The notes under the pieces: model-generated
What the model saw: the letters and a program-made list of their open reading frames with translations, nothing else
What the model was told of the DNA's origin: nothing
Database searches by the model: none
Program-made: the position numbers and the translations under genes
Shown: positions 5,511 through 63,934 of the stretch, in pieces
Layout of the letters: each line of letters begins with the position of its first letter
Numbering within the stretch: position 1 is the stretch's first letter
From: Candidatus Bathyarchaeota archaeon
GTDB taxonomy: Archaea > Thermoproteota > Bathyarchaeia > Bathyarchaeales > Bathycorpusculaceae
NCBI GenBank assembly: GCA_963702095.1
Contig: OY969706.1
Span: 2,528,001-2,592,000 of the forward strand
Length of the DNA: 64,000 nt
Direction of reading: 5' to 3'

Positions 5511-5642
5511 TTTTTTTAGTGTTAGAAGAATAGGATGCCGCCCTTACTCATCATCTTCTCAGGGACATGGCAAGCAACTGTGTTTTGCGTTCGGCAATAG
5601 AGATGCGATGCTGGCTGGTTGAGGGCAAATCCTCAAGCAGAA
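5511..5642 (+). repeat. dispersed ~130-bp intergenic repeat, subfamily B copy
   Basis: Aligns without gaps to 54606-54736 (tagtgttagaWgaa...gccgcccttRctcatcWtcttc...gttttgcgttc.gcaat.ga.atg...tggttg.gggcaaatcc.caagcaga); lies between convergent genes. Confidence 0.85.
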
Positions 5643-5663
5643 CCAAAAAAACCCTTTGACTCT

Positions 5664-6386
5664 CTAGAAGGGCTCGTAGTATCTGGGGTCCGAGTATCTG
5701 CTTTGCTTGAAAATCGTATAGCCTGCTGCGCCCCCGATTACTGCGCCAAGGGTGAAGCTGATAATGATCCATGAGTTGAAGGTTGGAAACGGGTTATGAA
5801 ACCCCAACTGAACCAGCCCCGCCAACAATAAGCCACCTCCAAAAAACAGACCCACCGCACCCGCGAATGCTCCAGCAGCGATTATCGAGAGTTGAGCACC
5901 CAGCATTTGACGGTTCGGCTGCATCATTGACCTCTTAACCCTTGCCTTCTCGGCGGCGATTAGGAAAACAAAGGCTAAAACCGCCGTCAACAGGTACTCG
6001 GCAAACGGCTCCAGCAAAATCACTCCTGAAAGGAACAGCCCAAAATCCAAAGCAACCATCGCGACGGAGAAGAGGCTTACCACGATCATGTAGCCCCTTG
6101 GAAAAGGCGCTTCAATCTGTGACTGGCTCTTCCTCGCTGCTAAATCTTGTACGAGGTTGGCGGCAAGTTTTCCCTTATCAGTCAAGACATAGAGTCCCCC
6201 GCTGTCTTTCGTAACTAACTCGCTTAGGACTTTTAGGTGGTAGTTGAGTTTGCCCGTGTTGCTTATTCCAAGTGCCGTCATTAAGTCGGTGTAGCTTTGG
6301 CTGCCTTTCTCGTTTAGTAACGCAACGATTTTTCTTCTTTTTTCGTCCTTGAGTACTTTGTGCAGGGATTCAAGTCCAGAGGGCAT
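5664..6386 (-). CDS. ArsR-like winged-HTH protein with C-terminal transmembrane helices
   Basis: LKDEKRRKIV...SYTDLM...NTGKLNYHLKVL HTH followed by ~4 hydrophobic segments. Confidence 0.8.
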   Translation of the reverse strand: MPSGLESLHKVLKDEKRRKIVALLNEKGSQSYTDLMTALGISNTGKLNYHLKVLSELVTKDSGGLYVLTDKGKLAANLVQDLAARKSQSQIEAPFPRGYMIVVSLFSVAMVALDFGLFLSGVILLEPFAEYLLTAVLAFVFLIAAEKARVKRSMMQPNRQMLGAQLSIIAAGAFAGAVGLFFGGGLLLAGLVQLGFHNPFPTFNSWIIISFTLGAVIGGAAGYTIFKQSRYSDPRYYEPF

Positions 6387-6459
6387 ACGGGTAATGGGGC
6401 TATGATGGGATTTTAGGGTTTTTGATAAAAAAAGTTATCAACGGCGTCAGAGGGGCAAC

Positions 6460-7329
6460 CTAACTTTTTTGCTTCTCGGCTGCAACCTGTTGAAGCGTCG
6501 CCTTCATTTTCCGTGCATCCACATCCAGAATTGGCGATTCACAGATCATCGTGGGGTGCAGCCCAAACTCCACAATCACCTCGGCAAGCCAGCGGAAATC
6601 GGGTCCGTAGCCTTCGTCGAGGGTGTGGTGTTTTCTTTCTCCTTGGGCATTGAATTCGATGGCGCTGAAGTGGCAGTGCATGCTCCGCAGTGTTTCAGTG
6701 CCCAGTTCCTCCTCCACTTTCAAGGCGACGGCTCGCATGTCCTCCATTTTTTTGAAGGTTCCCTGATGCAACGCATGGAGGTGCCCCCAGTCGATGACCA
6801 ACTGCGTACCCTCGACTTCGCGGTTTATGGCGATGATTTCGTCGATGGTGCCCACTTGGAACTTGCGCCCCATCGTTTCAGGACCCAACTTGACTTTGAT
6901 GCCCAAAGATTTCATTTCGGCGCTGACTTCTTTGAGGCCTTGGATGCAGGTTTTAAGTGCATAGTCTTTTTCGAATTTGCCGTAGAAGCCCGTGTGGAAA
7001 ACCATGACGTAGGCATCCATCCAATCCGCCGCGGTTGCGCAGGCGATCATGCGGCGTTTGCTGGCTTCGACGACTTCGCGTTTGCCTGAGAGGTTTATGA
7101 AGTAGCTGCCATGCATGCTGAGGCGCACATCGTTTTTTTGGGCTTCTTCGCCGAGTTTGCGGGCTTCAACCTCTTTCATCTGCGGCTTAGGACCCCAGCG
7201 GACGGCTTGGTACTCAAACGCATCCAGTCCCTCCTCGTGTAGCAGCCTTGGCGTGTCGTTTGTTGCGGCGCCTAAGACGCGGAACATTGGCGGTACGCCT
7301 GCGGGTCCAAAACGGGTATGCTCAGACAT
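6460..7329 (-). CDS. nfo: endonuclease IV (AP endonuclease family 2)
   Basis: RFGPAG, SMHGSYFINL, FHTG, ETMG, DWGHLHA, HCHFS, HH and ICESP metal ligands. Confidence 0.85.
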   Translation of the reverse strand: MSEHTRFGPAGVPPMFRVLGAATNDTPRLLHEEGLDAFEYQAVRWGPKPQMKEVEARKLGEEAQKNDVRLSMHGSYFINLSGKREVVEASKRRMIACATAADWMDAYVMVFHTGFYGKFEKDYALKTCIQGLKEVSAEMKSLGIKVKLGPETMGRKFQVGTIDEIIAINREVEGTQLVIDWGHLHALHQGTFKKMEDMRAVALKVEEELGTETLRSMHCHFSAIEFNAQGERKHHTLDEGYGPDFRWLAEVIVEFGLHPTMICESPILDVDARKMKATLQQVAAEKQKS

Positions 7330-7376
7330 GAAATCCTCTGTATTTTAGGTTGTTCAATGCATCATTAAGGCTTTCT

Positions 7377-8159
7377 CTACAGCAGGCTCGTGATAGTTGG
7401 AATCGCCACGTAGAGTCGCGCGTAAACCGCTACAATTATGATTATTATGGTGATTGCCAAAAGCACGTAGTCGCCAGCACGTAGTTTTAGGGCGTAGAGG
7501 TTGGTGCGTTTTTTGCTTGCGCCCCATGCGCGGGACTCCATGGCTTCGGCGAGTTCGAGGCTGCGGCGGATGGCGCTCACGATTAAGGGGATAAGCACGG
7601 GTATGTAGTTGCGGATGCGCTTCATCAGATTGCCCTTCTCTAACTCTAAGCCGCGAGCTTTCTGGGCGTCCATAATGGTTTGGGCTTCCTCAGCCAAAAC
7701 TGGCACAAAGCGGACGGCTGTGGTGAATGCAAACGCGAATTCATAGGGAACCCGCGACGTCTCCAGTGCCAAGCCCAAATGATCCGGTGAAGTAGTTAAG
7801 AAGAACACCGAAAAAGACTCAACCAGCACAACAAAACGCAGGGTCATGGCTAATGCGCCTTCGATGATTGCTGCCGTTAAAGTGTAGCCATTTGTGAAGT
7901 AGGTGGTTCCAACGTTTAAAATAAAGATGAATGCTGCCAAGAAGGCTGCTCCACGCAACGAACGCAGCCACTGCTTCTGTACCCGCGCCAAAAACACAAA
8001 CGGCAACTGCATCAAGAAAAGGACAAGCAAGGGGATGATTTGGATGAAGAGAATGGCGGCGACGAATATGGCGATGACATAGATGAATTTGATGCGTGGG
8101 TCAAGGTTGTGGATGGGGCTTTTGACCTTGCGGAATTTTAAGCCGTCAAAAACACTCAC
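7377..8159 (-). CDS. ecfT: ECF transporter transmembrane component T
   Basis: LDPRIK, two AQKARG/AMESRA motifs, hydrophobic profile. Confidence 0.93.
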   Translation of the reverse strand: MSVFDGLKFRKVKSPIHNLDPRIKFIYVIAIFVAAILFIQIIPLLVLFLMQLPFVFLARVQKQWLRSLRGAAFLAAFIFILNVGTTYFTNGYTLTAAIIEGALAMTLRFVVLVESFSVFFLTTSPDHLGLALETSRVPYEFAFAFTTAVRFVPVLAEEAQTIMDAQKARGLELEKGNLMKRIRNYIPVLIPLIVSAIRRSLELAEAMESRAWGASKKRTNLYALKLRAGDYVLLAITIIIIIVAVYARLYVAIPTITSLL

Positions 8160-8980
8160 TTGCCCCGCTCCTCCCTAAGTTTTAGCAGTAACTTCTTTGC
8201 TTCATAGAGGTCAATGACGTCTTTGGGCAAGCCCAAACCGGATAGTTTAGTGAAGACCTGTGCCACCTGCGGCAGCACAATCGAGGACAACTCCAACATC
8301 GCGGGGTCGGTTAGGATTTCGCTGCCCACTCCGTCAGCGACGATTTTCCCCTCTTTCATCAATATGACGCGGGGGTTGCATTCTGCCACAAACTCCACGT
8401 CATGGGTCACTGTGACGACGGTTTTGCCCTGTGTCTGCATCTGCATGATGAATTGGCGCAGCTTCTCTTTCTGCTCATGGTCCTGCCCGATGGTGGGTTC
8501 GTCAAGAATCAAGGTTTTAGGGTTCCAAGCCAACACAGACGCCAACGCCACCCGTTTACGTTCGCCGCCGCTGAGTAGAAACGGCGAGGTTTTGCGGTAC
8601 TGAGTCAGCGAAAGAAGGTTAAGCGCCCACGTGACGCGTTCTTCGATGACGTTTGGTTCGAAGCCGAAGTTTTTGAGTGCAAAACTGATTTCTTCTTCGA
8701 CGGTTTCGCTGAAAAGTTGGTGGTCGGGGTTTTGGAATACGAAACCGACGTTTCGGGCTAGGGCGGCGACGCTGGATTTGGTGGTTGGGACGCCGTCGAT
8801 TTTGACTGTGCCAGAGGAGGGTTTGAGTAGTCCGTTGAAGTGTTTGACAAAGGTGGATTTGCCTGCGCCGTTTTGCCCCATGATGGCGACGAATTCGCCG
8901 TCTTTAACTGTGAGTGAAACGCCTTTTAGGGCTTCGACTTTGCTGGGGTAGCTGAAATGCACGTTTTCGGCTTCAATCAT
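8156..8980 (-). CDS. ecfA2: ECF transporter ATPase
   Basis: Walker A GQNGAGKS, FQNPDHQL, LSGGE, LDEPT. Confidence 0.92.
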   Translation of the reverse strand: MIEAENVHFSYPSKVEALKGVSLTVKDGEFVAIMGQNGAGKSTFVKHFNGLLKPSSGTVKIDGVPTTKSSVAALARNVGFVFQNPDHQLFSETVEEEISFALKNFGFEPNVIEERVTWALNLLSLTQYRKTSPFLLSGGERKRVALASVLAWNPKTLILDEPTIGQDHEQKEKLRQFIMQMQTQGKTVVTVTHDVEFVAECNPRVILMKEGKIVADGVGSEILTDPAMLELSSIVLPQVAQVFTKLSGLGLPKDVIDLYEAKKLLLKLREERGK

Positions 8981-9826
8981 TTAGCCGAGTGCCTCCAACA
9001 GTTGCTCCGCCAACTCCTCCGATGACAGCGGTGTTTTGTCGCCGAGGTTGAAGCCTTCTTTCTTTAGCATCTGATAGAGCAAGGTGGCTTTGGGAATGCC
9101 GACGCCGATTAAACGGGTTTCCTCGTTGCTTAGGATAACTCGGGGGTCGCCTTCCAATCGTACTGAGCCCTGATCCATGATGATGAGGTGGTTGGCATAT
9201 TTGGCGGTTAAATCCAGCCGGTGCTCAACTAGGACAACGGTAATGCCGTTTTCCTTGTTCAACTTGTAAATAACATCAAAAATCCTCTCAGCACTCAACG
9301 GATCCAAAAAAGAGGTTGGCTCATCAAGTACGATGATCTCTGGTTCCATTGCGAGAACCGACGCAATAGCCACCCGCTGCTGCTGTCCACCGCTAATCTC
9401 ATGCGGTGAGCGCTCGCGGATGCCGTAGATGTCGGTTTGGTTGAGTGCCCAATCGACTTTTTTACGCATCTCTTCGCGGTTGACTGCGACGTTTTCTAAG
9501 CCAAACGCCACGTCTTTTTCGACGGAGAGTGCGAAAAGCTGGTTTTCAGGGTTCTGAAACACTAAGCCAACGTGCTTAGCCATTTCGTAAGTGTGGTGGT
9601 CAAGGGTGTTTATGCCGGCGACGGCTATTTCGCCTTTTATTTCGCCTTGATAGAAATGGGGCACTAACCCGTTGAAGCATCGGCACAGAGTGGTTTTGCC
9701 GCAGCCGCTGGGCCCCGTAATCAAAACAAATTCGCCCCGCTCCACCTTTATAGACACGTCGCATATCGATGGTTTAGCGGCGCCGGGGTAGGTGTATGTG
9801 AGGTTCTTTGTTTCGATTATAGCCAT
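8981..9826 (-). CDS. ecfA1: ECF transporter ATPase
   Basis: GPSGCGKT, FQNPENQL, ISGGQQQR, LDEPT. Confidence 0.92.
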   Translation of the reverse strand: MAIIETKNLTYTYPGAAKPSICDVSIKVERGEFVLITGPSGCGKTTLCRCFNGLVPHFYQGEIKGEIAVAGINTLDHHTYEMAKHVGLVFQNPENQLFALSVEKDVAFGLENVAVNREEMRKKVDWALNQTDIYGIRERSPHEISGGQQQRVAIASVLAMEPEIIVLDEPTSFLDPLSAERIFDVIYKLNKENGITVVLVEHRLDLTAKYANHLIIMDQGSVRLEGDPRVILSNEETRLIGVGIPKATLLYQMLKKEGFNLGDKTPLSSEELAEQLLEALG

Positions 9827-9986
9827 TGTTTTAGTTTGCCCACCTTAAGCGTTACTGTTTGCTCATTTAAGCGTAGCTACACAGTTTTGTTTTTCATCTA
9901 AAAGTTTTGGCTGTAATTAAGAATTTCCGTTAAACCATCTAAACAAAACTAAAACTTCTAAACACCCGGCGTTTAGTAGTGACAAA

Positions 9987-10991
9987 CTAGTCAGAGCTTT
10001 GGGATTTAGCGATTTTCTGCTTCAAAAGAGACTCGCATTTTTTGAGGGCATCCTTGATTTCGCCTTTGCCGCTGACACCAGATGCCATCGCATGGCCGCC
10101 ACCCACACCACCCAAAAACTCGCCAAGAGGCGCCGCAATATCGGTTCCCAGATGCACAGCAGCTTTCTCGTTGAACTGGCGGGTGCTGCGGAGGCTGATT
10201 TCGACTTTACCGTTTTTTTTGCCTGCCACCGCCGCCACATGCGCCCCCAAATCCACAAGCGCCTTAGCTGCAGAAGCTTGGTAGGCACTTACATGTGAAA
10301 GCGCCACAATCCACCCTTCGATTCTGATTATTCTTGCACGTTTACATGCTTTGAGCTTCGCGACCCGCTCGGAATCCTCAATGGGCAGGGCAAACTGGGC
10401 AAGCGTCTCCTGTGCGTCTATGCCTGCCTTCACCAGTTCTGCGATGACGCCGAAAGTGGGTGAATTAGCCAGTGCAAAATGGCGGGTGTCAAACGCTATG
10501 CCGACAAAAAGCGCTTTTGCCTCGTTGAGGGCGGGTTTGACGTCTGCTTCGACGTAGAGGCGGTAGACGAGTTCGCAGTTGGCAGCGGCGGTTTGGTCGA
10601 GGATGCAGAGTTTGCAGATTGCGGTGGTTTCGGGGCTGGGGGCGTGGTGGTCGATGATGATTTTTGGGGCAGGCGACTTTTTGATGGCTCCAGCAACTTC
10701 GTCTAGCTGCTCCACGGTGTTCATGTCTAAGAGCACGATGACTTCGGCGGAGTCAATGTTGGGTTTTAGGTTAACTGTGATGGGCAAGTACTCAAGCAAT
10801 GTCTTGGCGGGTTTGTTGATGCCCTGCGGACACCCAATCTCCACTACAACGTTGGGTAAAAACCGCTTCAAAAGCATCTGCAACCCATAGGCGCTGCAAA
10901 TTGCGTCGGCGTCGGCGCTGCGGTGACAAAGCAAAAGAACAAAGCCTGCTTGCTGCTGCTCTAAAATTGTGATTAATTCTTTGAAGGACAT
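9987..10991 (-). CDS. DHH family phosphoesterase
   Basis: H..ADAD, IIDHH, DT and C-terminal GGGH (DHHA1). Confidence 0.9.
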   Translation of the reverse strand: MSFKELITILEQQQAGFVLLLCHRSADADAICSAYGLQMLLKRFLPNVVVEIGCPQGINKPAKTLLEYLPITVNLKPNIDSAEVIVLLDMNTVEQLDEVAGAIKKSPAPKIIIDHHAPSPETTAICKLCILDQTAAANCELVYRLYVEADVKPALNEAKALFVGIAFDTRHFALANSPTFGVIAELVKAGIDAQETLAQFALPIEDSERVAKLKACKRARIIRIEGWIVALSHVSAYQASAAKALVDLGAHVAAVAGKKNGKVEISLRSTRQFNEKAAVHLGTDIAAPLGEFLGGVGGGHAMASGVSGKGEIKDALKKCESLLKQKIAKSQSSD

Positions 10992-11278
10992 CGTAGTTTT
11001 CTCAGGTAGTTTTCTGTAGCTTCATGCGCCTTAGCCGTAGCAGCCTTAACCAATGCTTCCACGTCAACAGTTTGGGTTTGCTTGGTTAGGAGCAGGTTGA
11101 TTTCCACGGTGACGCTGACCGGTTTTGTGCCTTCCACTTCGACGCTGATGTCGAGGCGTTCCACGTCTTTGCTTGGAACTTGTTTTAGGATGTATCGGCG
11201 GGCTGCGTCTTCGGTGATTTGGCATAAAAGTTCGATTTGCTCGGTGGATAGCTCTGGAAAACCGAGCTCACCCATCAA
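10973..11278 (-). CDS. DUF3194-like hypothetical protein
   Basis: Small archaeal ORF (GFPELSTEQIE...) in its usual position between prefoldin beta and DHH. Confidence 0.7.
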   Translation of the reverse strand: MMGELGFPELSTEQIELLCQITEDAARRYILKQVPSKDVERLDISVEVEGTKPVSVTVEINLLLTKQTQTVDVEALVKAATAKAHEATENYLRKLRCPSKN

Positions 11279-11293
11279 GCATCAAATCTCCAT

Positions 11294-11674
11294 TTAAGAG
11301 AGGGGTTGACCTTGACCTGAAACTGGGCTTAGGTCTTCTTGCAGTTTAGTCTGTGACTCTTTAACTTGGCTGCGGACGCGTTCTTCCTGTCGGTTGATGA
11401 CGGTGCTGCGGGTTTCGAGCAGGGACTTGCGTTCGTTGAGGTCTTCGCTTACTTTGGCTTTTTCTGCTTTGACAAGCAGTGATCCAATGGCTTTGTAGAT
11501 GACTGCGTCGTCTGTGGTTTTGGCGAGTTCTGCGAGGGTTTGTTCTACCTCAACTTTTTCCATGTCAACCTGCTGTTTTTGAGCCATAATCGACTGCAGC
11601 GTCTGCTGTAACTGTTGGAGTCTGAGAAGCCTTTCTTGCACGTTAGGCGGTAATCTGGATAGTTCATCACTCAA
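11294..11674 (-). CDS. pfdB: prefoldin subunit beta
   Basis: LPPNVQ start, Gln-rich coiled coil, YKAIGSLLVK beta-hairpin. Confidence 0.93.
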   Translation of the reverse strand: MSDELSRLPPNVQERLLRLQQLQQTLQSIMAQKQQVDMEKVEVEQTLAELAKTTDDAVIYKAIGSLLVKAEKAKVSEDLNERKSLLETRSTVINRQEERVRSQVKESQTKLQEDLSPVSGQGQPLS

Positions 11675-11732
11675 AGTTTATTCCTTCCGTACCCCAAAAA
11701 GAGAGAAGCTATTAATTAAGGGTTTCCAACAC

Positions 11733-11867
11733 TTTTTTTCTATAGTAGTTGTTGGCGAAAACCCGCTATACACAACAACAACCAGCAGAGTTTGTGAACG
11801 GTTGCTTTTTCGGTTCAGAACCTATTTCGTGTTGCAGGCTGGTTGTGGAGCAAACCTCAAGCAGAAT
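11733..11867 (+). repeat. dispersed ~130-bp intergenic repeat, subfamily A copy
   Basis: tttttctatagtagttgttg-N18-caacaacaacca-N48-tgcaggctggttgtg...caagcaga; matches the copies at 27845, 50720 and 63802. Confidence 0.9.
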
Positions 11868-11924
11868 CAAATAACCTTTTAATCCACTGTATAAGGGGAA
11901 GGGGAGAGGCGGCAGAGCAACAGA

Positions 11925-12545
11925 TTAGCCCTTGCATCTTTGTCCCAATAATTTCTCTGCCAACTGCAACTCCTGCACGGTGTTGATGTTTACGGCGAGT
12001 TCCTCGTAGTTGAGGACGTAGATGTCTTGGTCGAGCCATTCGTCACCATAACGTTTGCTGCCATCAATGACGTTTATGCCCACTGGAACCAGTTCCTGCC
12101 CGCATTCGCTAAAAGAGTAGTCAACGCACATTCCAAGCTGGGTTTTAGCATTGATTGGAACCGCAACCGTCAACGCGGGCTTACCGCAACGCTCATACCG
12201 CTCCACAATCGCATCGATCATCTCGGACTTGACCAGTGGCAAGTCGGCGGCAATCGCCAAAAACACGCCCAACTTAAGCACCTGCACAGTGTAACCCATG
12301 TCGCTGACATAGTCGTTGCCGGGGGTTTCGATGACCTGCACGCTTTGCTGCTTCATCAACGCCGCAGTTTTTGGAGTAACAACGGTTGTGGCGACAATTA
12401 TCCTATCGATTTTCTTCGCGCCTCTCAGCGCTTCTATAACGTATTCGATGACGGGTTTACCGCAGACATAAATCAGCGGTTTCTCTTCGGCGAGTTTCAT
12501 GCGGGTGCCTTTGCCGCCTGCCATAACCAGTGCCGTTACACCCAT
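11925..12545 (-). CDS. cobY: GTP:adenosylcobinamide-phosphate guanylyltransferase CobY
   Basis: ALVMAGGKGTRM, EKPL, ADLP, NINT; in an operon with cobS/cobT. Confidence 0.85.
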   Translation of the reverse strand: MGVTALVMAGGKGTRMKLAEEKPLIYVCGKPVIEYVIEALRGAKKIDRIIVATTVVTPKTAALMKQQSVQVIETPGNDYVSDMGYTVQVLKLGVFLAIAADLPLVKSEMIDAIVERYERCGKPALTVAVPINAKTQLGMCVDYSFSECGQELVPVGINVIDGSKRYGDEWLDQDIYVLNYEELAVNINTVQELQLAEKLLGQRCKG

Positions 12546-13330: not shown

Positions 13331-13331
13331 T

Positions 13332-14420: not shown

Positions 14421-14429
14421 TTTGGTGGC

Positions 14430-15098
14430 CTACTTTTGGGTTACAGTGTACTTCTTGATTTCTAAGTACCCAAAGCCATTATCTAAGCGTTTCTTCTCAG
14501 TCTCAACCAACTCGATTTTCAGTTTGAAGTCGGGTCCATCAGTGATGACGGTATGGTATTCGCCGCCTTCACCACAGGCATCCACGCCGGGAAGCTTGAG
14601 GATATCATCGTAGAATTGGCGGTCTAACACGCGTCCAAGCCAATCCAAGCTCAGTTCGCGGTTGGTGCGCACCACCGTTGCCTTTAAGCCTGTGGCGATG
14701 TAGTCGAGGTAAATCTGTTTGGTGTCCCCCATCCACAGCGGCTTAACAGGTTGCAAGCCGACTTCTTTTAGGATGCGAGCCAGCCAGCCTTCTTCGTGAC
14801 CAGCGACTTCGTAGATGTCGCCTGTGACTAAGCCTTCTGCGCCTCTGTTTTTGCATTCGGTGAGTACTGCTTTGAAGTCGGCTTCGTAGGTTTCGGCGGA
14901 AGTCGTTTTTTTGATGAGTTGCACCCCTGTGGCTTTGGCTTGGGCGTCGAGGATGCCTGCGGGGATCATGTGGAAGTTGGATTTTTCCTCGTTCATCATC
15001 ATGGTTAATAGGGATAGGACTTGGTGTCCTTGCTGTTTTGCAAGGAGGTATGCGTAGGCGCTGTCTTTGCCGCCGCTCCATGAAGCAACAACTTTCAT
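14430..15098 (-). CDS. Dph6/diphthine-ammonia-ligase-family PP-loop ATPase (first gene of the cob operon)
   Basis: SWSGGKDS, VTGDI, PLW, DACGEGGEYHT. Confidence 0.85.
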   Translation of the reverse strand: MKVVASWSGGKDSAYAYLLAKQQGHQVLSLLTMMMNEEKSNFHMIPAGILDAQAKATGVQLIKKTTSAETYEADFKAVLTECKNRGAEGLVTGDIYEVAGHEEGWLARILKEVGLQPVKPLWMGDTKQIYLDYIATGLKATVVRTNRELSLDWLGRVLDRQFYDDILKLPGVDACGEGGEYHTVITDGPDFKLKIELVETEKKRLDNGFGYLEIKKYTVTQK

Positions 15099-27822: not shown

Positions 27823-27844
27823 GTTGTACTTAACCGCTGGTTTG

Positions 27845-27977
27845 TTTTTTTCTATAGTTGTTGTTGCCATGACCCCCTCTTTTTTCAACAACAACCAGCA
27901 GATTGTGGGAATGGTTGTGTTTTGGCTTTGGGCTTAGCTGATAGTTGCAGGTTGGTTGTGGAGCATTCTACAAGCAG
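27845..27977 (+). repeat. dispersed ~130-bp intergenic repeat, subfamily A copy
   Basis: tttttctatagttgttgttg-N19-caacaacaacca-N48-tgcaggttggttgtggagc...caagcag; between convergent genes. Confidence 0.9.
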
Positions 27978-28062
27978 TTCTATTGCCATGTTGGGTGGTC
28001 ACCGCGACCTACCTCAAAGGTACCTCCTCTTACTAGAGGCAGAATTGTCAAAGAAAAGAAAG

Positions 28063-46004: not shown

Positions 46005-46007
46005 CCC

Positions 46008-50572: not shown

Positions 50573-50713
50573 ATGTGGGTTTGCGCTAAATGGGGGTTTA
50601 AAGCTGAAGATAAATTGGCTAAGTGCCCAAAATGCGAGGGTACAAGCTGGAAAGAGGAGCCGGTTATGAAGATAGCGACGAAGAAGGTTCCGGCTTTTAA
50701 AACCCGCCGATAA
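50573..50713 (+). CDS. small rubredoxin-like Zn-ribbon protein
   Basis: GGAG RBS then MWVCAKWGF...CPKCEG; the first knuckle is CxxW instead of CxxC. Confidence 0.55.
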   Translation: MWVCAKWGFKAEDKLAKCPKCEGTSWKEEPVMKIATKKVPAFKTRR

Positions 50714-50719
50714 GATTGC

Positions 50720-50842
50720 GGCTTGCTGCACAACCAGCCTGCAACACAAACCAAACGCTGACGCAAAAAAGCAACCGCCTACACAATTGATTGGTTGTTG
50801 TTGTGTATAGGGGGTTTTCTGCAACAACTACTATAGAAAAAA
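50720..50842 (-). repeat. dispersed ~130-bp intergenic repeat, subfamily A copy
   Basis: Reverse complement ttttctatagtagttgttg-N18-caacaacaacca-N48-tgcaggctggttgtg; between convergent genes. Confidence 0.9.
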
Positions 50843-50861
50843 GACTTTTCTGTAAAAGGGG

Positions 50862-53531: not shown

Positions 53532-54527
53532 TTAGATTGGGAAGAAGAACAGCCGAGTGAACACCAACACAGGCAAAAACAAAAGCACACACAGCACAAT
53601 TGTCATGTCGCGGATTTTTAGCGCCTCGAGGATTTTGTCGCCCGTTAAGGGTTCGTCGGGGTCGCCTAAGATGTATCGGTCAGGTTTCACCAGTTGCACC
53701 CGCAAAGCACCTGCCGTTGCCGCCATGGGCCAACCGTGGTTTCGACTCTGCGTTTTGCCGTTGTCCCGCTTCGCAATGCGCCAAGCATTCCTGTAATCAT
53801 AACGCAGAAGCGCCGCTGAAGCAACTATCAGCAGTGCGGCTAGGCGCGTGGGGATATAGTTGACTACTGTGTCTAGGGTGGCGCTGAACCAGCCTGTGTT
53901 TATGTGCTCTGGGTCTTTGAAGCCCACCATGCCGTCGAGGGTGTTTATGGCGCGGAACGCGATGGCGCCTGTGACTCCGAAAAGCGAGAACGAAATTATC
54001 GGGGACATTTTAAAGTCGATCAGGTTCTCAGACATGGATTCGATGATGGCGGAGCCCATTTGCTGGGCGTTTAAGTGGCTTGAATCACGCCTTGAGAAGT
54101 GAGCATATTTTTTGGCTTCTTGGGCGTCATTGGAGTCGATGGCTTTTGCAGCTGCTTTTGCCCAGTCAGTTTCCAGTTTTATGCAGATGGTGGCTTTAAG
54201 CAGGATTATGCCTATGAAGGCATAGAGGAAAATGCTCAAGGCGGCTACGGTGATGTAGCTGCGGATTGCCCACAGCACCAAAAAAGTGGGCACAGCAAAA
54301 ACAGCAATCACTGTTAAGCCCAAGAGTACGCCTAGGAACTTTTCGGTTTGGGGGTTGGGGTTTTTGAAGGCGGGCTCGATTTTTTTTGTGAAATTACCCA
54401 TCAAAACCGTTGGGTGCAACTTGAACAGTAGGCGGTCGGGGTTGTTGGGGGATGGGTCGCCAAGAATGAGGTCTAGTGCTATTGCGAGAACCAGCATGAC
54501 GATGGCGACCAACACGTCTGTTAGCAA
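53532..54527 (-). CDS. cbiB: adenosylcobinamide-phosphate synthase CbiB
   Basis: LD..LGDP, HP, ES.SEN, INTLDGMVG, LD.V.NYIP.R, N.GWP. Confidence 0.85.
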   Translation of the reverse strand: MLTDVLVAIVMLVLAIALDLILGDPSPNNPDRLLFKLHPTVLMGNFTKKIEPAFKNPNPQTEKFLGVLLGLTVIAVFAVPTFLVLWAIRSYITVAALSIFLYAFIGIILLKATICIKLETDWAKAAAKAIDSNDAQEAKKYAHFSRRDSSHLNAQQMGSAIIESMSENLIDFKMSPIISFSLFGVTGAIAFRAINTLDGMVGFKDPEHINTGWFSATLDTVVNYIPTRLAALLIVASAALLRYDYRNAWRIAKRDNGKTQSRNHGWPMAATAGALRVQLVKPDRYILGDPDEPLTGDKILEALKIRDMTIVLCVLLFLPVLVFTRLFFFPI

Positions 54528-54605
54528 GTTTTGGACCCAATAGTTCTTTGCTCCACTACTTCTGGGGAACAGTTAATATCGATTACGGTCACACAGTCTT
54601 GTCGG

Positions 54606-54736
54606 TTTTTCTAGTGTTAGATGAAGGCAAAGCCGCCCTTGCTCATCTTCTTCCAGCGGGTTTGACGGACGGCTTTGTTTTGCGTTCTGCAATGGAAATG
54701 GGTTGCTATTTGGTTGTGGGCAAATCCGCAAGCAGA
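54606..54736 (+). repeat. dispersed ~130-bp intergenic repeat, subfamily B copy
   Basis: Ungapped match to 5511-5642 and same ccagc...ggYt..gtttt...tgc...tggttgt...caagcaga spacing as subfamily A. Confidence 0.85.
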
Positions 54737-54865
54737 CCACACAAACACTTTTTTGATTTACCGATACAGGCTCAATGAGGATTAGCGGAGTGTTCCAGGG
54801 CTGGAACGTTTTGTTCCATGAGTAGAGCTATGAGCGGCAGCATGCTATGGAAATGCAGTGTCTCT

Positions 54866-57528: not shown

Positions 57529-57576
57529 ATCGGTGTTCCCACTTCGCCTATTGGGTGCTTGTGATAAAAGCTTTGC

Positions 57577-60129
57577 TTAGAGGGTGGCGGCTGCTTTTTT
57601 GGTTTGTTTTCTAAGACGATAGCCGAGTAGGGCAATCACCAAAACAGTCACCAGAATCGCGACTACAATTGCAATCGATTCCATACTGATGGGCACCGCA
57701 GGATTAGACGGATTTGTCGAAGTCGAATCAGGCGCTGAGTCGGTAATTTCGTTGGCGAAGCAGTAGAGGTTCCAGTCGTTGCAGCCCACATATAGCCGAT
57801 TATTAGCTATGGCTGGTGCAGACCAGCTGCTAGAGGGCGTGGTGGCTTGAGCGATGACTTTTCCCTGTTGGGCAGTGTCTAAGATGAATATGTGGCGTTG
57901 GCTGGTAACCATGTAGACTTTGCCGTTGGCGTAGGCTGGAGCAACGGTGAGTTCGTCGCCTGTGAAGTAGCTCCATTTGGTTTGACCGTTGCTGGCGTCG
58001 AGGCAGGCAAGGTTGAATTTGTCGATGACATAGAGGTTGCCATCTACGGGGATGGGGCTTGAAACGATGAATTCGCCTGCGCTGGGATCAGTGAAGTTCC
58101 ACACAAAGTTGCCTGTGGCTTCATCTATGCCATAATATGAGCGCATGTTAGAGGAGACATACACCATGCCGTTGGCTACGGAGGGGGTGCCGAGCATTTC
58201 GGTGCCGCCTTGGAACTGGTAAACGTAGGGAATCTCCTGTTTCCATGCGACAGCCCCATTGGAGGTGTCCAGCTTGTAGAGTCCTGCTGAATCAGGTTCC
58301 TGGGAATAGAAGAATACGCTGTTGTCAGCCACCGCCGGAGAAGACGTTATGGGACCATCTGTTTTGGCTTTCCAAACCATATTGCCGCTGGAAGCGTCTA
58401 GGCAGTAGAGGTTTCCGTCTATGGAGCCAACGTAGACTCTGCCGTTTACGACGGTAGGGGAAGACTTCATCACGATGGTGTTGAAGGTGAATGGCAGGTT
58501 GCCGTTGACAAACGTTTTCCAAAGAAGCTTACCCGTTGACGTATCGAGACAGTAAACGTATCCGTCGTCGCCACCAGTGTAGAGTTTGCCGCCAACCACT
58601 GCAGGGGTGGATTCCACTGCGCCACCTGTGGTGTATTTCCAGATTAAAGCGCCGCTCCATGCTCCGACGGCGTAAACGTTTTTGTCTTGGGAGCCAAAGT
58701 AGACGACGCCGTTAACCACTGACGGGGCAGATATGACGGAGCCGTTAGTTGTAAATTTCCAGGCCATGGTCAGGTTGTAGGGACCTTCAGGGGCGGCTGA
58801 GGAGTGCTCTGGGTCTGCTCGCCACATTGGCCAGTTACTGGCTGGAGTGGAGTCTGAACCTATGCACCATAACTCGTTTAGACGTGAATACTCGTTGCCT
58901 GTGGAAGCGTCAACTGAGGTGGTGACGTTGCCGGGGATCATGTAGAGTTTGCCGTAGGCGATGGCGATTGATTCTCTGGGTGCGAGGGCTTCCACCGGTA
59001 GGGTCCAGATGGGTTCGCCTGTGAATGCGTCGATGCAGGCAAATTGGGAGGTGCCGACTTGGCCAAAGTACTGGGCAACTTCGCCGGTGGTAACGTAGAC
59101 TTTGCCGTCTGCAACAGCGGGCATACCAGGCCACAGTAGCGACTCGTCGGGGCCTTTGTAGCGCCAAACTAAGCTGCCGGTTTGGCCGTCGAGGGCATAG
59201 AGGTAGCCGTCTTTGTTCATTTCGTAAACTATGCCGTAAGCCACAGCTGGGCCCGTGGTGAAGTATCCGTCGGTGTCGTTTTCGGGGGTGTAGGTCCAGA
59301 TTATGGCGCCGTTGCTGGCGTTGAAACAGTACATTGTGTTGTCGTCGGTTCCGCCTCTGTAGAATTTGCCGTCTGAGTAGGCGCCGTTGAAAATCATCGG
59401 TCCCTTAGTCAGCGTAGTCCACACGATCTCACCTGTTTTAGCGTTGACTCCGAACTGCTGGTTCTCAAATGACCCAGTGAAGACTAAGCCGCCGCCGTAG
59501 GTGGCGCCTACGCCTGTTTTGCCGCCGCCAGGAATATAGGTGTTCCAAGCCAGGGTGGGCGGTTGATCGGGGTTAGAGAAGTCCCACGCTTGGAGGAATG
59601 TATCAGATTTTACATAGAACATTCTTTCTTCTGGACTGTAAACGTTTGCCGTAAAGATTCCTGTGTCAGGGGTAAAGTTGGGGCTGGTCCAGATGATCTG
59701 CCCAGTTTTAGGGTTAAGGCAGGTACCTTCCACGACCATGTGGGTGTCGTCGATTTTGAAGGCGATGGGCCAGGTTCCATTCATCTCAATCGGTGTTTGC
59801 CAAGCAATACTGCCAGATTGGTCTACTGCAACCACAGAGGTGCTTGAGCAAACATAGATCATGCCGTCGAACGCTGAGAGGTAGGGTTGTATGCCTGGGA
59901 CGTTGGCTTTCCAAAGGATTTGGGAACTTGAGGGGGCGGGTCCCGCTGAGAAACGGGTGAAGGAGGAGTCGCCTTGGAACTGTGACCATTCATACTGCGA
60001 GAGATCGACGTTCGCAGCGCTCGTTGGAGTGCTGGATTGGGCATGTATGATTGAGAGGGAGGCAAGCATTGAGCATGCTAAAATCAGGGTCAAGGCAACT
60101 GTTATTTTGATGTTTTTTAGTTTGGTCAT
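57577..60129 (-). CDS. two-domain PQQ-like beta-propeller surface protein
   Basis: Signal peptide, W..F.G and WPMWR propeller starts, SSP.V repeats, C-terminal TM plus basic tail. Confidence 0.88.
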   Translation of the reverse strand: MTKLKNIKITVALTLILACSMLASLSIIHAQSSTPTSAANVDLSQYEWSQFQGDSSFTRFSAGPAPSSSQILWKANVPGIQPYLSAFDGMIYVCSSTSVVAVDQSGSIAWQTPIEMNGTWPIAFKIDDTHMVVEGTCLNPKTGQIIWTSPNFTPDTGIFTANVYSPEERMFYVKSDTFLQAWDFSNPDQPPTLAWNTYIPGGGKTGVGATYGGGLVFTGSFENQQFGVNAKTGEIVWTTLTKGPMIFNGAYSDGKFYRGGTDDNTMYCFNASNGAIIWTYTPENDTDGYFTTGPAVAYGIVYEMNKDGYLYALDGQTGSLVWRYKGPDESLLWPGMPAVADGKVYVTTGEVAQYFGQVGTSQFACIDAFTGEPIWTLPVEALAPRESIAIAYGKLYMIPGNVTTSVDASTGNEYSRLNELWCIGSDSTPASNWPMWRADPEHSSAAPEGPYNLTMAWKFTTNGSVISAPSVVNGVVYFGSQDKNVYAVGAWSGALIWKYTTGGAVESTPAVVGGKLYTGGDDGYVYCLDTSTGKLLWKTFVNGNLPFTFNTIVMKSSPTVVNGRVYVGSIDGNLYCLDASSGNMVWKAKTDGPITSSPAVADNSVFFYSQEPDSAGLYKLDTSNGAVAWKQEIPYVYQFQGGTEMLGTPSVANGMVYVSSNMRSYYGIDEATGNFVWNFTDPSAGEFIVSSPIPVDGNLYVIDKFNLACLDASNGQTKWSYFTGDELTVAPAYANGKVYMVTSQRHIFILDTAQQGKVIAQATTPSSSWSAPAIANNRLYVGCNDWNLYCFANEITDSAPDSTSTNPSNPAVPISMESIAIVVAILVTVLVIALLGYRLRKQTKKAAATL

Positions 60130-60358
60130 AGCTCATCGCTTAGAGTTGTTTAGGGATCTGTTGGAGAACTTTTTGGGTCTCTTGACGGAAGGATGAATAA
60201 TTACTTCCCCGCTGCCACTATAAAGTTTACGGAAAACAAGGTTTGTCAAAAAAACAGATGCTGGTAGAAACCCCAAAGATGGTTAAAACTAGAAAAGTGC
60301 AGAAGACTTTTTAAGCTATAGAGAATCTAAAAAATGGTAAATTGAGGGGAATTTTACC

Positions 60359-61450
60359 TTGACACAGAATGGTCCATTACTCATGACTTCTTGGAGAGCA
60401 ACAGGCGCCTGCAACGCCCGATGCCTATACTGCAACGTTGACGCCACGGGCAAGCATGCTCCAAGAGAAATGACAACTCAGGAAGCCTTCCACCTCGTCG
60501 ATGAGGTGCAAAAGTTTGGGGTAAGATGGTTCGGTTTGAAAGGCGGCGAACCCCTAACACGCCCAGACATATTTGAAATTGCCACTTACGCTAAAAGTAA
60601 AGGCTTAAACGTGTGCCTCTTAACCAACGGTGTCTTCGTGGACGGTTCAATCTATGACAACTTGGTTAAAAACCAGATTTGGTCGTCAGTAAGCATCGAC
60701 GGTCCAGAAGAAATCAACGATCAACTCAGAGGGAAAGGCAGCTACAAGAAAGCAGTCGCAGCCATTGAAAAACTTGCCAACGGCAAAATCCTAAACGGCT
60801 TAGCCTGCGCAATAACAACAATCAACCTTAAACACCTCGATCACGTCGCTGAACTCGCAGACAAGTATCATGCAAACTTTGTCTGGTATAATGCCCTTGT
60901 TCCCAGCGGCAGAGCAAAAACAACCATGGAATTAGAACCCACCCCAGAACAATACGAATGGGTACTCAACCACATCTGGGACATTACAGAAAAATACAAG
61001 GGCAAATTCGAAGTCCATGTACATTGCCCATTCTTTGCGCGTGTGGTAAAGCAGCGTCTTCCAGAAAAAGAATTCAACGAATGGTATGAAAAAGAATTCC
61101 ACGGCAAATGCACCTACTTCGCCTTCGGCGGCTACCTCTCAGTAACCGAAAACGGAGACTTGATTCCCTGCTTCTACACTGACTTGCAGCCCAACGAACC
61201 CATGATGCTGGGTAACATCCGCAGTAAATCCTTAAACACAGCATGGGAAGAAGTCAAAGCCTCAAAATACTACAACAGGTTCCAAGACCGCAAAATTCTC
61301 AAGGGCAAATGCGGAGTCTGCGAATACCTTGATGTCTGTGGCGGATGCCGAAACCGAGCCTACGCATACACTGGCGACATAACGGAGTCTGACCCAGCCT
61401 GCGGCTATATTCCTAAGGCATGGGCTGAAATGCAGAAGAAAAAGAAGTAA
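60359..61450 (+). CDS. radical SAM/SPASM domain protein
   Basis: CNARCLYC, GGEP, SIDG; SPASM C..(G).PC...KGKCGVCEYLDVCGGCR.RA...DPAC. Confidence 0.9.
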   Translation: MTQNGPLLMTSWRATGACNARCLYCNVDATGKHAPREMTTQEAFHLVDEVQKFGVRWFGLKGGEPLTRPDIFEIATYAKSKGLNVCLLTNGVFVDGSIYDNLVKNQIWSSVSIDGPEEINDQLRGKGSYKKAVAAIEKLANGKILNGLACAITTINLKHLDHVAELADKYHANFVWYNALVPSGRAKTTMELEPTPEQYEWVLNHIWDITEKYKGKFEVHVHCPFFARVVKQRLPEKEFNEWYEKEFHGKCTYFAFGGYLSVTENGDLIPCFYTDLQPNEPMMLGNIRSKSLNTAWEEVKASKYYNRFQDRKILKGKCGVCEYLDVCGGCRNRAYAYTGDITESDPACGYIPKAWAEMQKKKK

Positions 61451-61537
61451 ATTCTGCAAATTCTTCTCTTATTTTGGTTTTCAGTTTTTAGCATAACTAA
61501 CATAAGCGAATTAGTTGACTCGTTATCATGAGCAGAA

Positions 61538-63763
61538 ATGCATAGAACTGCAATTGTGTGCCTTGTTCTGTCGGCGATGCTTCTTTTTCCAAGCTTCGTC
61601 TTTGCAGTAGAACAGAGCATCAGCGACACGTGGCCGATGTTTCAGCATGACCTTGCCCACACCGGTTCCTCAACATCTCAGGCGCCACAAACCAACCAAA
61701 CCCTCTGGAAATTCAACACAGGCGGACAAGTGGGTTCCCCAACCACAGCAGAAGGCGTCGTCTACGTGGGCTCCTACGACCACAAACTCTACGCCTTCAA
61801 CGCCTCCACAGGTGAAACCCTATGGTCTGGTCTCACAAACGGCATAATAATCTCCAAACCTGCAGTGTCCAACGGCATCGTTTGTGTTGGCTCCGAAGAC
61901 CACAACTTCTATGCATTCAACGCCTCAAACGGCAAACGACTCTGGAGTTACAAGACAGGCTACTACGTTGACTCCGACCCCACAATCGCCAGCGGCACCG
62001 TTTATGTGGCATCAGAAGACCATAACATCTACGCCTTCAACCTCCAATCGGGGGCGCTGCTATGGAGTTACCCAACAGGCGACAAAATCATGCTTTCCTC
62101 CACCGTCGTGAGCGGCGGCTTGGTCTACGTTGGTTCACTGGATAGAAACCTCTATGCCCTCAACGCAGCGGACGGTAGGTTGGTGTGGAACTACACCGCT
62201 GGCAACGGAATCGCCTCAACCCCCACCGTTGAAGGTGGTATAGTCTATTTTGGCTCGCTTGACGGCAAACTCTACGCATTAGACGCCTTGGATGGTAGCT
62301 TGAGGTGGACTTACACAACAGGCGGCGCCATCTACTCCTCACCCGCAGTATCGGGGGGCTTGGTTTATTTTGGGTCGTTTGACGGCAAAGTCTACGCTTT
62401 AGACGCAGCCGATGGCAGGGAAGTATGGAATTTCAGCACTGGCGGAGGCGTCGCGTCTTCCCCGACAGTTACGGGCAACCGCGTATATGTGGGTTCCAGC
62501 GACCACAAAATCTATGTCCTAAATGCCCAAACTGGTGGTGCCCTATGGAGTTACAGTACAGGCGACCAAGTCATCTCCCAACCCGACGTTGCAGGCGGCA
62601 CGGTTTATGTGGGTTCGTGGGATGGCAAACTCTATGCCCTAAACACGGAAAATGGCACATTGGTGTGGAATTATACGACAGGCGGCAAAATCGACGCTTC
62701 CCCAACCGTCGCTGACGGATTGGTCTATTTGGGTTCCCACGACGGCAAAATCTACGCGCTCAACGCTTCGACGGGGATGGTGGGGTACGATTGGGAACTC
62801 CACAACAACGTTGTGTGGAGTTACGACACGGGCGATATGGTTATGTTTTCGTCGCCTGCAATCGCCGATGGCGTCCTCTATGTGGGCAGTTACAACGGCA
62901 AAGTCTACGCACTCGACGCTCCGGACGGCGGTTACTTGTGGAGTTACCAAACCGGTTACGCGGTGGTTTCGTCTCCAGCAGTCAGCGATGGGGTGGTGTA
63001 TGTGGGTTCAGAGGACCACTGTGTTTATGCACTCAACACTTCGAATGGCGCTTTGATTTGGAAGTTTGAGACCGGCGATATGGTGATGGTGTCTTCGCCC
63101 GCAGTCGCCGACGGCAAAGTCTACATTGGCTCAAACGACGGCAACCTCTACTGTCTCGAGGCATCCACTGGGGGGTCCATCTGGAATTACACCGCAGGCG
63201 GCTACGTTGTCTCGTCTCCAGCAGTCGCAAACGGTGTAGTCTACGTGGGTTCATACGACAACAACGTCTATGCGCTAAACGCCCAGACGGGACAGCTTGT
63301 CTGGAAAATCAGCACAGGGGGCAGTGTAGCCTCGTCCCCCGCCATAGCCATCGGCGTGGTCTATGTGGGTTCAGGCGACGGCAAAGTTTACGCCCTCAAC
63401 GCCGCCAACGGCAAAGTGCTCTGGACTTATCAAACGGGCGGAGAGGTGGATTCTTCGCCTGCAGTAGCGGATGGAGTGGTCTATGTGGGTTCATACGACG
63501 ACAACGTTTACGCCCTGTCTGCGGTGGATGGCTCTCGATTGTGGAGTTATGCAACGGGTGGAGAGGTTGTTTCTTCACCATCAGTGGCAGATGGAGCGGC
63601 TTACGTGGGTTCCTATGACCACCTGCTCTACGCTTTCGGCGCCACAACAGGAAATGCTCCTTCGATCTCCGGGGGCACTCTTGTTTCTTTGGCGTTGGTA
63701 GCAGCCATCTTTTTAGCTGTCTTGATAGCGGCGTTTGCCTATAGCAAGAGACACAGGGAATAG
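61538..63763 (+). CDS. PQQ-like beta-propeller surface protein with 16 tandem ~40-aa repeats
   Basis: Signal peptide, WPMFQHD, 16x W.Y.TG..V.SSP.V..G.VYVGS.D...YAL, C-terminal TM. Confidence 0.9.
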   Translation: MHRTAIVCLVLSAMLLFPSFVFAVEQSISDTWPMFQHDLAHTGSSTSQAPQTNQTLWKFNTGGQVGSPTTAEGVVYVGSYDHKLYAFNASTGETLWSGLTNGIIISKPAVSNGIVCVGSEDHNFYAFNASNGKRLWSYKTGYYVDSDPTIASGTVYVASEDHNIYAFNLQSGALLWSYPTGDKIMLSSTVVSGGLVYVGSLDRNLYALNAADGRLVWNYTAGNGIASTPTVEGGIVYFGSLDGKLYALDALDGSLRWTYTTGGAIYSSPAVSGGLVYFGSFDGKVYALDAADGREVWNFSTGGGVASSPTVTGNRVYVGSSDHKIYVLNAQTGGALWSYSTGDQVISQPDVAGGTVYVGSWDGKLYALNTENGTLVWNYTTGGKIDASPTVADGLVYLGSHDGKIYALNASTGMVGYDWELHNNVVWSYDTGDMVMFSSPAIADGVLYVGSYNGKVYALDAPDGGYLWSYQTGYAVVSSPAVSDGVVYVGSEDHCVYALNTSNGALIWKFETGDMVMVSSPAVADGKVYIGSNDGNLYCLEASTGGSIWNYTAGGYVVSSPAVANGVVYVGSYDNNVYALNAQTGQLVWKISTGGSVASSPAIAIGVVYVGSGDGKVYALNAANGKVLWTYQTGGEVDSSPAVADGVVYVGSYDDNVYALSAVDGSRLWSYATGGEVVSSPSVADGAAYVGSYDHLLYAFGATTGNAPSISGGTLVSLALVAAIFLAVLIAAFAYSKRHRE

Positions 63764-63801
63764 CCGCCTCCACTTTTCCAGGCAGATCAAAAAGTTGTCT
63801 G

Positions 63802-63934
63802 TTCTGCTTGTGGAAAGCTTTACAACCAGCCTGCAGCCACAAAAACTAGCCAACACCAAAACACAGCCGTCCAGACAGCCCGCTGGTTGTTGTTGTGTAT
63901 AGGGGGTTCTCTGCAACAACAACTAAACAAAAAA
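63802..63934 (-). repeat. dispersed ~130-bp intergenic repeat, subfamily A copy
   Basis: Reverse complement tagttgttgttg-N18-caacaacaacca-N48-tgcaggctggttgta...caagcagaa. Confidence 0.9.

Follow-up and report, generated by a model that had tools for sequence, protein, structure and literature searches.

The REP/BIME, ERIC and Correia families of bacteria are intergenic repeats, 100-150 bp long and dispersed, that contain internal hairpins and have a modular build; they are sometimes exploited by the host and act as rearrangement hot spots. Bathyarchaeia are among the most abundant archaea of anoxic sediments and are known almost solely from assembled genomes. Here we analyze a dispersed repeat element that occurs in six copies in a stretch of 64,000 nucleotides (hereafter the window) of a Candidatus Bathyarchaeota archaeon, which comprises bases 2,528,001-2,592,000 of the single 2,937,366-base contig OY969706.1 of assembly GCA_963702095.1 (genome G000; other G numbers denote further genomes). 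We read it, with a probability of about 0.6, as a family of small, non-autonomous mobile DNA elements restricted to one genus and resembling MITEs (transposable elements of the miniature inverted-repeat type), with a core of ~137 bp that extends to ~160-200 bp when the flanks are included. The family is real, abundant and undescribed, and it is strongly associated with rearrangements.

Among the insertion sequences (IS), the IS6 family (IS26/IS257) is described, in the accessible portions of three papers, as forming replicative cointegrates, inverting DNA within a molecule and recombining in a targeted manner at existing copies (PMC7986276, PMC4471558, PMC4894685). The accessible portion of PMC7986276 also mentions just two IS6 MITEs, of 227 and 336 bp. 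The Bathy-6 genome paper (PMC11697101) contains no occurrence of the terms repeat, transposon or MITE, Bathyarchaeia go unmentioned in the accessible main text of two large archaeal transposon/MITE surveys, and the literature search found no description of this element.

Family size and anatomy of the element

A profile derived from the six window copies recovered 179 places in G000 (E at most 1e-3) and a refined profile recovered 183. The window copies, all with nhmmer E-values of 2e-38 to 1e-32 in the search of G000, rank among the best genome matches of the six-copy profile, and no seventh copy was found by nhmmer in the 64-kb window. The original prediction, made from the letters of the stretch, had given six positions with their strands and had described a near-gapless alignment. 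Both descriptions agree with the matches obtained at 5507-5648(+), 11732-11871(+), 27844-27981(+), 50710-50844(-), 54603-54744(+) and 63795-63937(-), which align over ~140 columns with 44 invariant and an essentially ungapped core. The features of the window are as follows.

Copy 1, subfamily B: 5482..5662, plus strand; core ~5506-5648, from the T-run to CAAGCAGAAC; motif GTATATCGAAA upstream at 5482-5492; a twin at genome 2,345,6xx is 97.7% identical and shares a 3' extension to ~5662.
Copy 2, subfamily A: 11732..11925, plus strand; core 11732-11871; outer module in inverted form (the reverse complement of TCTGTTGCTCTGCC...CTCCCC...TTATACAGTGGATTAAAAG) at 11876-11925, abutting the stop codon of the next gene; left boundary set by empty sites in G003 and G001.
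Copy 3, subfamily A: 27844..27981, plus strand; between convergent open reading frames (ORFs), without a flanking inverted motif.
Copy 4, subfamily A: 50710..50844, minus strand; 3' end degenerate; G007 has a copy at the matching site, within a collinear 3.9-kb alignment.
Copy 5, subfamily B: 54603..54762, plus strand; core 54603-54744, in a divergent spacer; motif TTTTGATTTAC downstream at ~54750-54760.
Copy 6, subfamily A: 63782..63951, minus strand; core 63795-63937; flanked on either side by an inverted motif, GTATATCAAAT at 63941-63951 and TTTTGATCTGC at 63782-63792.

One or both inverted flanking motifs thus accompany 4 of the 6 window copies. That three copies lie between convergent genes, as had been stated, can be verified within the window for those at 5511 and 27845, while the copy at 63802 has its partner gene past the end of the window. 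Tandem-gene spacers hold the copies at 11733 and 50720, and a divergent one holds the copy at 54606.

Alignment of 167 near-full copies to the profile extended these features to the whole chromosome. The conserved core of ~137 nt runs from the T-run (TTTTTGTTTTT-CTAG) through CAAGCAGAAC, and composition is random beyond ~14 nt upstream and ~10 nt downstream of it. The rigid motif spacing first noticed in six copies holds genome-wide, with indels below 10% per column except at two places, an insertion hot spot in the hairpin-1 loop, affecting ~30% of copies, and a deletion column, affecting ~20%. The proposed division into two subfamilies is also real: 58 copies are of type A (GTTGTTG/CAACAAC), 103 of type B (GAWGAAG/CATCWTCTTC) and 6 are mixed, with a mean identity of 66-69% within subfamilies and 55% between them. 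The intergenic placement claimed for the six copies applies to the entire family, since 183 of 183 copies fall outside ORF calls of at least 100 aa, made with the copies masked by a crude caller (longest ORFs, greedy acceptance).

By spacer type, 50 copies are convergent, 49 divergent and 84 tandem, against 494, 494 and 1,597 such spacers in the genome (chi-square p = 6e-5), and the convergent/divergent excess goes with the greater length of those spacers. Within tandem spacers, 34 copies run along the gene direction and 50 against it. Plus and minus copies counted by octant of the G000 chromosome gave no clear pattern.

Distribution and mobility among related genomes

A sequence-only covariance model built from 46 copies was run over 40 relatives, 24 of the same genus and 16 from other genera of the order. 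Matches were obtained in 14 of the 24 same-genus genomes, the load per genome ranging from 0 to at least 76, as scoring was limited to 76 candidates in each genome. The copy-rich relatives are G005, G007 and G014 (at least 76 each), G024 (38), G015 (30) and G008 (21); eight same-genus genomes hold 1-4 copies, and ten, three of which are less than 70% complete, hold none. The 16 genomes from other genera yielded one marginal match (E 8.4e-4). The element is confined to one Bathyarchaeia genus. Loci of public collections that match it belong to named Bathyarchaeia metagenome-assembled genomes (MAGs).

Two public contigs titled as Prevotella and Pseudomonas MAGs (L126, L130) also gave provisional nhmmer matches and are probably misbinned contigs of Bathyarchaeia. 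A viral or plasmid carrier was considered and rejected; the one pattern match in a viral contig was due to chance, with no element by nhmmer, and the plasmid and phage collections gave no match.

Comparison of individual sites shows that copies are gained, replaced or differently oriented between close relatives. At the copy-2 site, the flank is shared by G003 and G001 as far as ...TTTCCAAC, beyond which their sequence is an unrelated spacer holding no copy. G000 and G007 continue with the T-run exactly where these empty sites diverge, which makes the T-run part of the element. Elsewhere G007 carries ~165-170 extra bases including a copy where G000 has plain spacer, and the inserted DNA opens with AATCAAACGTGGCTTTGG, a version of the optional left motif. 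A further spacer measures 64 nt in G005 versus 591 nt in G000, where it holds two tandem copies.

Copies may also differ in kind at matching sites. Upstream of the gene at 53532-54527 (the copy-5 site), G000 has a B-type copy; the G007 copy is of type A and shares its left junction and orientation, the flanking genes of the two genomes being 82-97% identical in protein. At this site G014 has a B-like copy, a remnant is left in G005, and G003 is empty. In another spacer, which runs from a gene end to a conserved element downstream, the G005 copy is of type A and the G000 copy of type B; the two are on opposite strands and stand at different distances from the stop codon. Beside the gene at 5664-6386, the G007 copy is oriented opposite to copy 1. 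The original emphasis against a MITE is contradicted, as the load range, the empty sites and the breakpoints described below show that the element is or was mobile and multiplies.

An observation on copy 2 concerns its left flank. Copy and flank together (window 11640-11864, G000 2,539,640-2,539,864) are 98% identical to G007, with neighbouring genes at 80-87%, and the likeness breaks off immediately behind CAAGCAG. Recent transfer or conversion could account for it, as could an assembly artefact where a contig starts.

Young copy pairs and rearrangements

Only 10 of 13,861 G000 copy pairs reach at least 90% identity. Seven of these ten young pairs lie within 60 kb, a proximity that 0 of 10,000 position permutations attained, and eight are inverted (430 of 10,000 permutations), including all seven nearby pairs.

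The clearest instance (example 1) comprises the copies at 1,169,668-1,169,800(+) and 1,183,150-1,183,284(-), which are 96% identical and bracket a 13.5-kb segment. In G007 a single copy, 76-77% identical to both, joins the left outer flank to the far end of the segment. In G005, G015 and G024 it is the near end of the segment that adjoins the right outer flank, so that the segment has the other orientation in all four relatives, and the G015 junction is a copy-free 27-nt spacer between two convergent gene ends. These comparisons lead to an ancestral order of flank, copy, reversed segment and flank, while G000 now reads flank, copy(+), segment, copy(-) and flank. This arrangement is exactly the product expected if a resident copy had transposed replicatively into the far junction on the same molecule. 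Intramolecular replicative transposition yields a deletion or an inversion and loses the flanking repeats, according to the portion of the IS6 review consulted (PMC7986276).

The survey of rearrangement around copies took in 77 copies of other species together with 400 nt of flank on each side. In 45 of them both flanks could be mapped to G000, 14 collinearly and 31 at distant places, a count that stands without matched copy-free spacers, the impression that breaks are few elsewhere being a rough one only. Among the 31 non-adjacent cases, both flank ends abut a G000 copy in matching orientation in 6 and one end does so in 12; where a single flank maps (25 copies), 8 abut a G000 copy. Six comparisons of G000 with G007, not designed for this purpose, showed few breaks away from copies, one 3.9-kb indel being seen. 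Within the window, the sequences to the left of copies 1 and 2 meet in inverted order at a junction of G003 and G001 that has no copy, so that both ends of the 6.3-kb block between these copies are breakpoints.

Ends and optional outer parts

The ends of the element are loosely built. Optional inverted flanks consist of an upstream ...TTATAACA-GTAGATCAAAA-TTTGGGC and its downstream complement TTTTGATCTAC-TG... Allowing at most 2 mismatches, the GTAGATCAAAA-type motif precedes 25 of 167 copies (0 of 167 control windows) and the TTTTGATCTAC-type motif follows 28 of 167 (6 of 167 control windows); both are present in 11 of 167, spanning 159-202 bp. The earlier statement that terminal inverted repeats are absent thus stands for most copies and fails for this minority. 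A longer upstream module, consisting of TCTGTTGCTCTGCC, ~8 nt, CTCCCC and an A/T-rich hexamer, accompanies ~10-14 copies and holds CTGTTGC at its distal end. It was never met apart from a core, 14 of 14 matches at E < 0.01 lying within 23 nt of one. The absence of target duplications noted earlier was corroborated: the longest flank repeats equal those of a shuffled-partner control, and there is no duplication at a fixed offset.

Constraint on the conserved blocks

The rate of change within copies was followed in 28 pairs, in which a relative's copy and a G000 copy abut the same flank in the same orientation (flank identity 73-94%, copy identity 55-99%). Conserved columns (at least 1 bit, 67 columns) mismatch at 231 of 1,720 positions (13%) and variable columns (below 0.5 bit, 25 columns) at 350 of 655 (53%; Fisher p ~1e-84). 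For the 15 cross-species pairs with at least 72% identity, the values are 11% and 40%. The ten young within-genome pairs behave alike, with 19 of 669 conserved positions changed (2.8%) versus 38 of 408 (9.3%) and 22 of 250 (8.8%) in the other classes; the chi-square of ~23 (p ~1e-6) is overstated, since pairs share copies.

Conserved blocks accordingly diverge 3-4 times slower than variable ones, young pairs included. Either selection keeps the blocks at each site or other family members often overwrite the copies, and both exclude plain neutral decay; with the fixed spacing in 167 copies and the mismatch of 13% versus 53%, the contention that the copies are not decaying neutrally is borne out. 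This block-and-spacer conservation would be compatible with the multi-site protein-DNA platform that had been suggested.

Search for a mobilizing enzyme

Neither the Y1 (IS200/IS605) transposase domain PF01797 nor the TnpB domain PF07282 has any match in G000. Y1 genes occur in 22 of 61 genomes of the genus and in 0 of the 7 copy-rich ones, and genomes with up to 10 Y1 matches hold 1-4 copies. No multi-copy transposase family was found in the 20 of 22 paralogue clusters of G000 that were scanned, these being housekeeping genes, four TFB paralogues, a duplicated terminase region and unknowns. An autonomous parent sharing the ends of the element was also not found; partial copies are solitary, and the outer module is seen only beside cores.

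Three diverged G000 proteins carry an IS240/IS6 DDE domain, scoring 58-73 bits with PF13610 (cut-off 27) and 124.4, 129.9 and 125.2 bits with NF033587, 'IS6 family transposase' (cut-off 125). Their genes (PF13610/NF033587) lie in G000 as follows.

1,161,792-1,162,949: IS6-like gene
1,195,022-1,195,942: IS6-like gene
1,962,817-1,963,947: IS6-like gene

Two of the three proteins add an N-terminal region (with a SWIM zinc finger score in one, the second being alike by eye) and a zinc-ribbon part. IS6 being the textbook case of replicative cointegrate formation and inversion, as the consulted portion of its review presents it (PMC7986276), these proteins are candidates for the enzyme. An IS6-type GG tip is seen in 1 of 10 seeds and the caaa motif is absent, an 11-mer has 85 matches in G000 versus 131 for its reversed control and is thus not enriched, and 2 of 7 independent young pairs lie within 45 kb of an IS6-like gene, which is not significant. 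A lone copy near an IS6-like gene in G020 was dismissed as coincidence, being degenerate, without a T-run, ~0.9 kb upstream of a two-gene unit and sharing no ends with it.

Across many genomes of the genus, the IS6-family homologues are diverged, similar in length and few in copy number, and may be domesticated. Seven paralogues in G053 (L217-L223) share only the gene and a small divergent ORF, AbrB-like by eye, and show no visible inverted ends.

Mechanism proposed and evidence opposing it

On the reading as a MITE-like family, new copies would arise by replicative (copy-in) transposition within the chromosome. The donor would stay, an inverted copy would land at the target and the intervening DNA would flip; because such a route is intramolecular and replicative, single copies would carry no target duplication. 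The enzyme would act in trans, the three IS6-family homologues being the sole candidates seen, with nothing linking them to the element. The rigid, block-conserved interior would form the platform read by the enzyme and by any host partners, and the slow divergence that follows insertion points to copies being also retained by selection or replaced time and again.

Several results weigh against this proposal. No enzyme is linked to the element. PF13610 does not track load, having no match in G008, G014, G015 and G024 (21 to at least 76 copies) and two in G003, which has no copy of the element, and inverted ends like those of the element were absent around the IS6-like genes of G000, five loci of other genomes and the seven G053 paralogues. 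The inverted flanks occur in just 15-17% of copies, although the ends are the best-kept part of a classical MITE, and no target duplication was definable at any empty site. Copies were taken to be orthologous on the evidence of just one or two flanks, and the breakpoint count has the limit given above.

Copying with inversion has been shown once, as one clean case among the three young pairs examined, and the family-wide bias supports it. In example 2 (1.12 Mb), the copies are 99% identical and 8.5 kb apart and the segment is inverted relative to G007, where one junction is copy-free (a 2-nt gap). However, the copy at the other G007 junction is opposite to that of G000, and G015 has flank and segment in the relative orientation of G000, which makes the case ambiguous. 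In example 3 (2.62 Mb), the copies are 91% identical and 2.7 kb apart and the segment is uninverted relative to G005 and G007. Copy-and-invert is not the sole route of copying.

Alternative explanations

The copies might instead be host-serving DNA sites, i.e., rigid platforms for a host protein involved in chromosome organisation, replication or transcription control, with mobility as a past origin. This we consider unlikely, though it has to be taken seriously, as it accommodates blocks at fixed spacing with free spacers, the 3-4 times lower change of conserved columns both between species and in young duplicates, the position of 183 of 183 copies outside ORFs and the retention of several copies at matching sites across species. 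Yet ten of 24 same-genus genomes are copy-free and eight have 1-4 copies, so that they cannot be required by any conserved process of the cell; the copies follow no rule of orientation towards genes (in tandem spacers, 34 same and 50 opposite) and show no clear strand pattern along the chromosome, copies at matching sites are flipped or swapped for the other subfamily, and no binding protein is known. A more elaborate version, to which we would assign a rather slim chance, is a domesticated network of ~180 platforms under site-wise purifying selection, read by one of the SWIM/zinc-ribbon IS6-derived proteins, which persist as low-copy paralogues throughout the genus; that protein would both seed new sites by copy-and-invert and use them for a host task such as domain organisation or programmed inversion of gene blocks. 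Rearrangement between existing sites by a site-specific recombinase, shufflon- or dif-like and without transposition, appears very unlikely: it makes no copies, yet near-identical pairs exist, one new copy stands at a junction that is copy-free in G015, and the load runs from 0 to at least 76 per genome. Its attraction lies in the 6 of 45 relatives' copies with both flanks abutting two different G000 copies, in breakpoints at or near the element ends and in copies too diverged (66% identity) for ordinary homologous recombination; IS26, too, recombines at pre-existing copies in the accounts consulted in part (PMC4894685, PMC7986276).

Structured non-coding RNA genes or cis-elements, as the original prediction had allowed, are hardly probable and were not supported by any test run. 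The whole window gave no Rfam match at gathering scores, and one copy gave just two chance-level matches (E 2.8 and 6.9). Mutual information across all copies is dominated by the subfamily split, diagnostic columns covarying whether paired or not. With types A and B separated, no run of stacked pairs showed an excess of complementary changes, the best isolated pair reaching z ~4.6 among ~10,000 tested, and RNAalifold found no consensus structure within either. Averaged pair probabilities on the element strand are at most 0.27-0.34, at a small recurrent 3' hairpin TTGTGG/CCACAA, and none reaches 0.25 on the opposite strand. On both strands, the six window copies fold with energies equal to dinucleotide shuffles (z of 0.04, 0.03, 1.12, -0.92, -1.70 and 0.86 on the element strand; 0.42, 0.24, 0.18, 0.27, -1.16 and 0.65 on the opposite strand), the predicted minimum-energy folds vary between copies, the B-type arms pair in differing registers from copy to copy in the alignment, and no orientation rule relative to genes exists. 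An RNA would be favoured by that 3' hairpin, by the possible pairing of A-type CAACCAGC with GCTGGTTG (copy at 11733), by TATA-like A/T-rich hexamers ahead of the optional flanking motif and by the hairpin-1 arms, where A and T are exchanged on both sides between the subfamilies with G/C kept. This exchange speaks for a role of the pairing between those arms, whether in DNA or RNA; it is one event inherited by entire subfamilies, which MAFFT shifts by one column in hairpin 1. Palindrome-associated IS200/IS605 or REP elements moved by a Y1 (HUH) enzyme, or TnpB guide-RNA scaffolds, would share the lack of target duplication, the poorly conserved ends and hairpins near both core ends, but this reading is largely refuted and deserves almost no credence, given 0 matches to PF01797 in G000 and all seven copy-rich genomes, 0 to PF07282 in G000, and two hairpins unlike each other.

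Other roles were considered and set aside. A coding role was discarded because the three frames open on the element strand are owed to rare A and the conservation is not codon-like. A general role as terminator conflicts with T-runs on one strand only, given the orientations seen in tandem spacers (34 same versus 50 opposite). For a stand-alone repeat derived from CRISPR, a k-mer scan of G000 gave no CRISPR-like array and only two short tandem repeats. For a C/D-box or K-turn RNA, the box-like GAUGAUGA is confined to the reverse strand of B-type copies, and A-type copies lack it.

Further observations in the genome

At 132,122-133,294 of G000, two same-strand copies bracket a single 284-aa ORF of unknown family, and G016, with one copy in total, carries that copy at the matching locus. 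The ORF was dropped as an autonomous element, having no transposase look by eye, with no domain scan made. At another G000 locus (L198, 2,619,201-2,623,500), the flank of two tandem copies ends at ~640-680 in a tRNA-like 3' half (...CAGTAGTTCAAATCTACTCCCCGCTACCA), and a degenerate second copy of this ~45-nt piece lies between the two elements at ~930-975, as at an integrase attachment site. The T-arm-like GTAGTTCAAATCTAC at this locus resembles the flanking motif of the element. ARAGORN called no tRNA at the tRNA-like piece.

The four TFB paralogues, at least 70% identical, lie at 253,493-254,443, 577,929-578,873, 2,106,728-2,107,699 and 2,921,494-2,922,486, and the representative scanned is a full TFIIB/TFB (PF00382, PF08271). 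The presence of several TFBs in a single archaeon hints at alternative promoter programmes. Duplicated blocks of G000 were seen at 1,090,399-1,092,259 / 1,210,465-1,212,310 and at 650-661 kb / 1,107-1,114 kb. One holds a large-terminase gene (PF03237) and another unknown ORFs; they are possibly two related proviruses or integrated elements.

Comparison with known systems

Overall, the bacterial REP/BIME, ERIC and Correia repeats resemble the element in being dispersed, intergenic and of similar size, with hairpins, modular variants and rearrangement hot spots. They differ in belonging to another domain of life and have no sequence relation to it; REP depends on a Y1 transposase, which G000 lacks, and Correia has clear inverted ends and a TA duplication.

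Likeness to the IS6 family lies in behaviour. The young copies are nearby and inverted, one copy-plus-inversion event is clean, flanking repeats are lost, flanks are exchanged between copies, IS6 homologues are present in the genome, and CTGTTGC in the outer module recalls cTGTt, though the match is short. In contrast, the element does not conserve the GG tip and caaa motif found at IS6 ends, no 8-bp duplication is seen, and the IS6-like genes lack such ends and do not covary with load.

With ~180 copies in G000, an element found at most of the synteny breaks examined would be a main driver of rearrangement in the genus, as well as a practical source of assembly breaks and mis-binning. Like a MITE, it is small (~137-175 bp), non-coding, intergenic and taxon-restricted, with a load uneven among relatives, presence or absence at matching sites and inverted flanks on some copies. 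Unlike a MITE, it has no target duplication and no identified parent insertion sequence, and its interior is most conserved, with fixed spacing, while the inverted flanks (15-17% of copies) are least so. A fixed interior with loose ends and slow change of the blocks after insertion is unusual for a MITE, and this anatomy, together with the absence of a recognisable parent, would make the family a good case for studying how archaeal non-autonomous elements are recognised and copied, and whether they undergo co-option.

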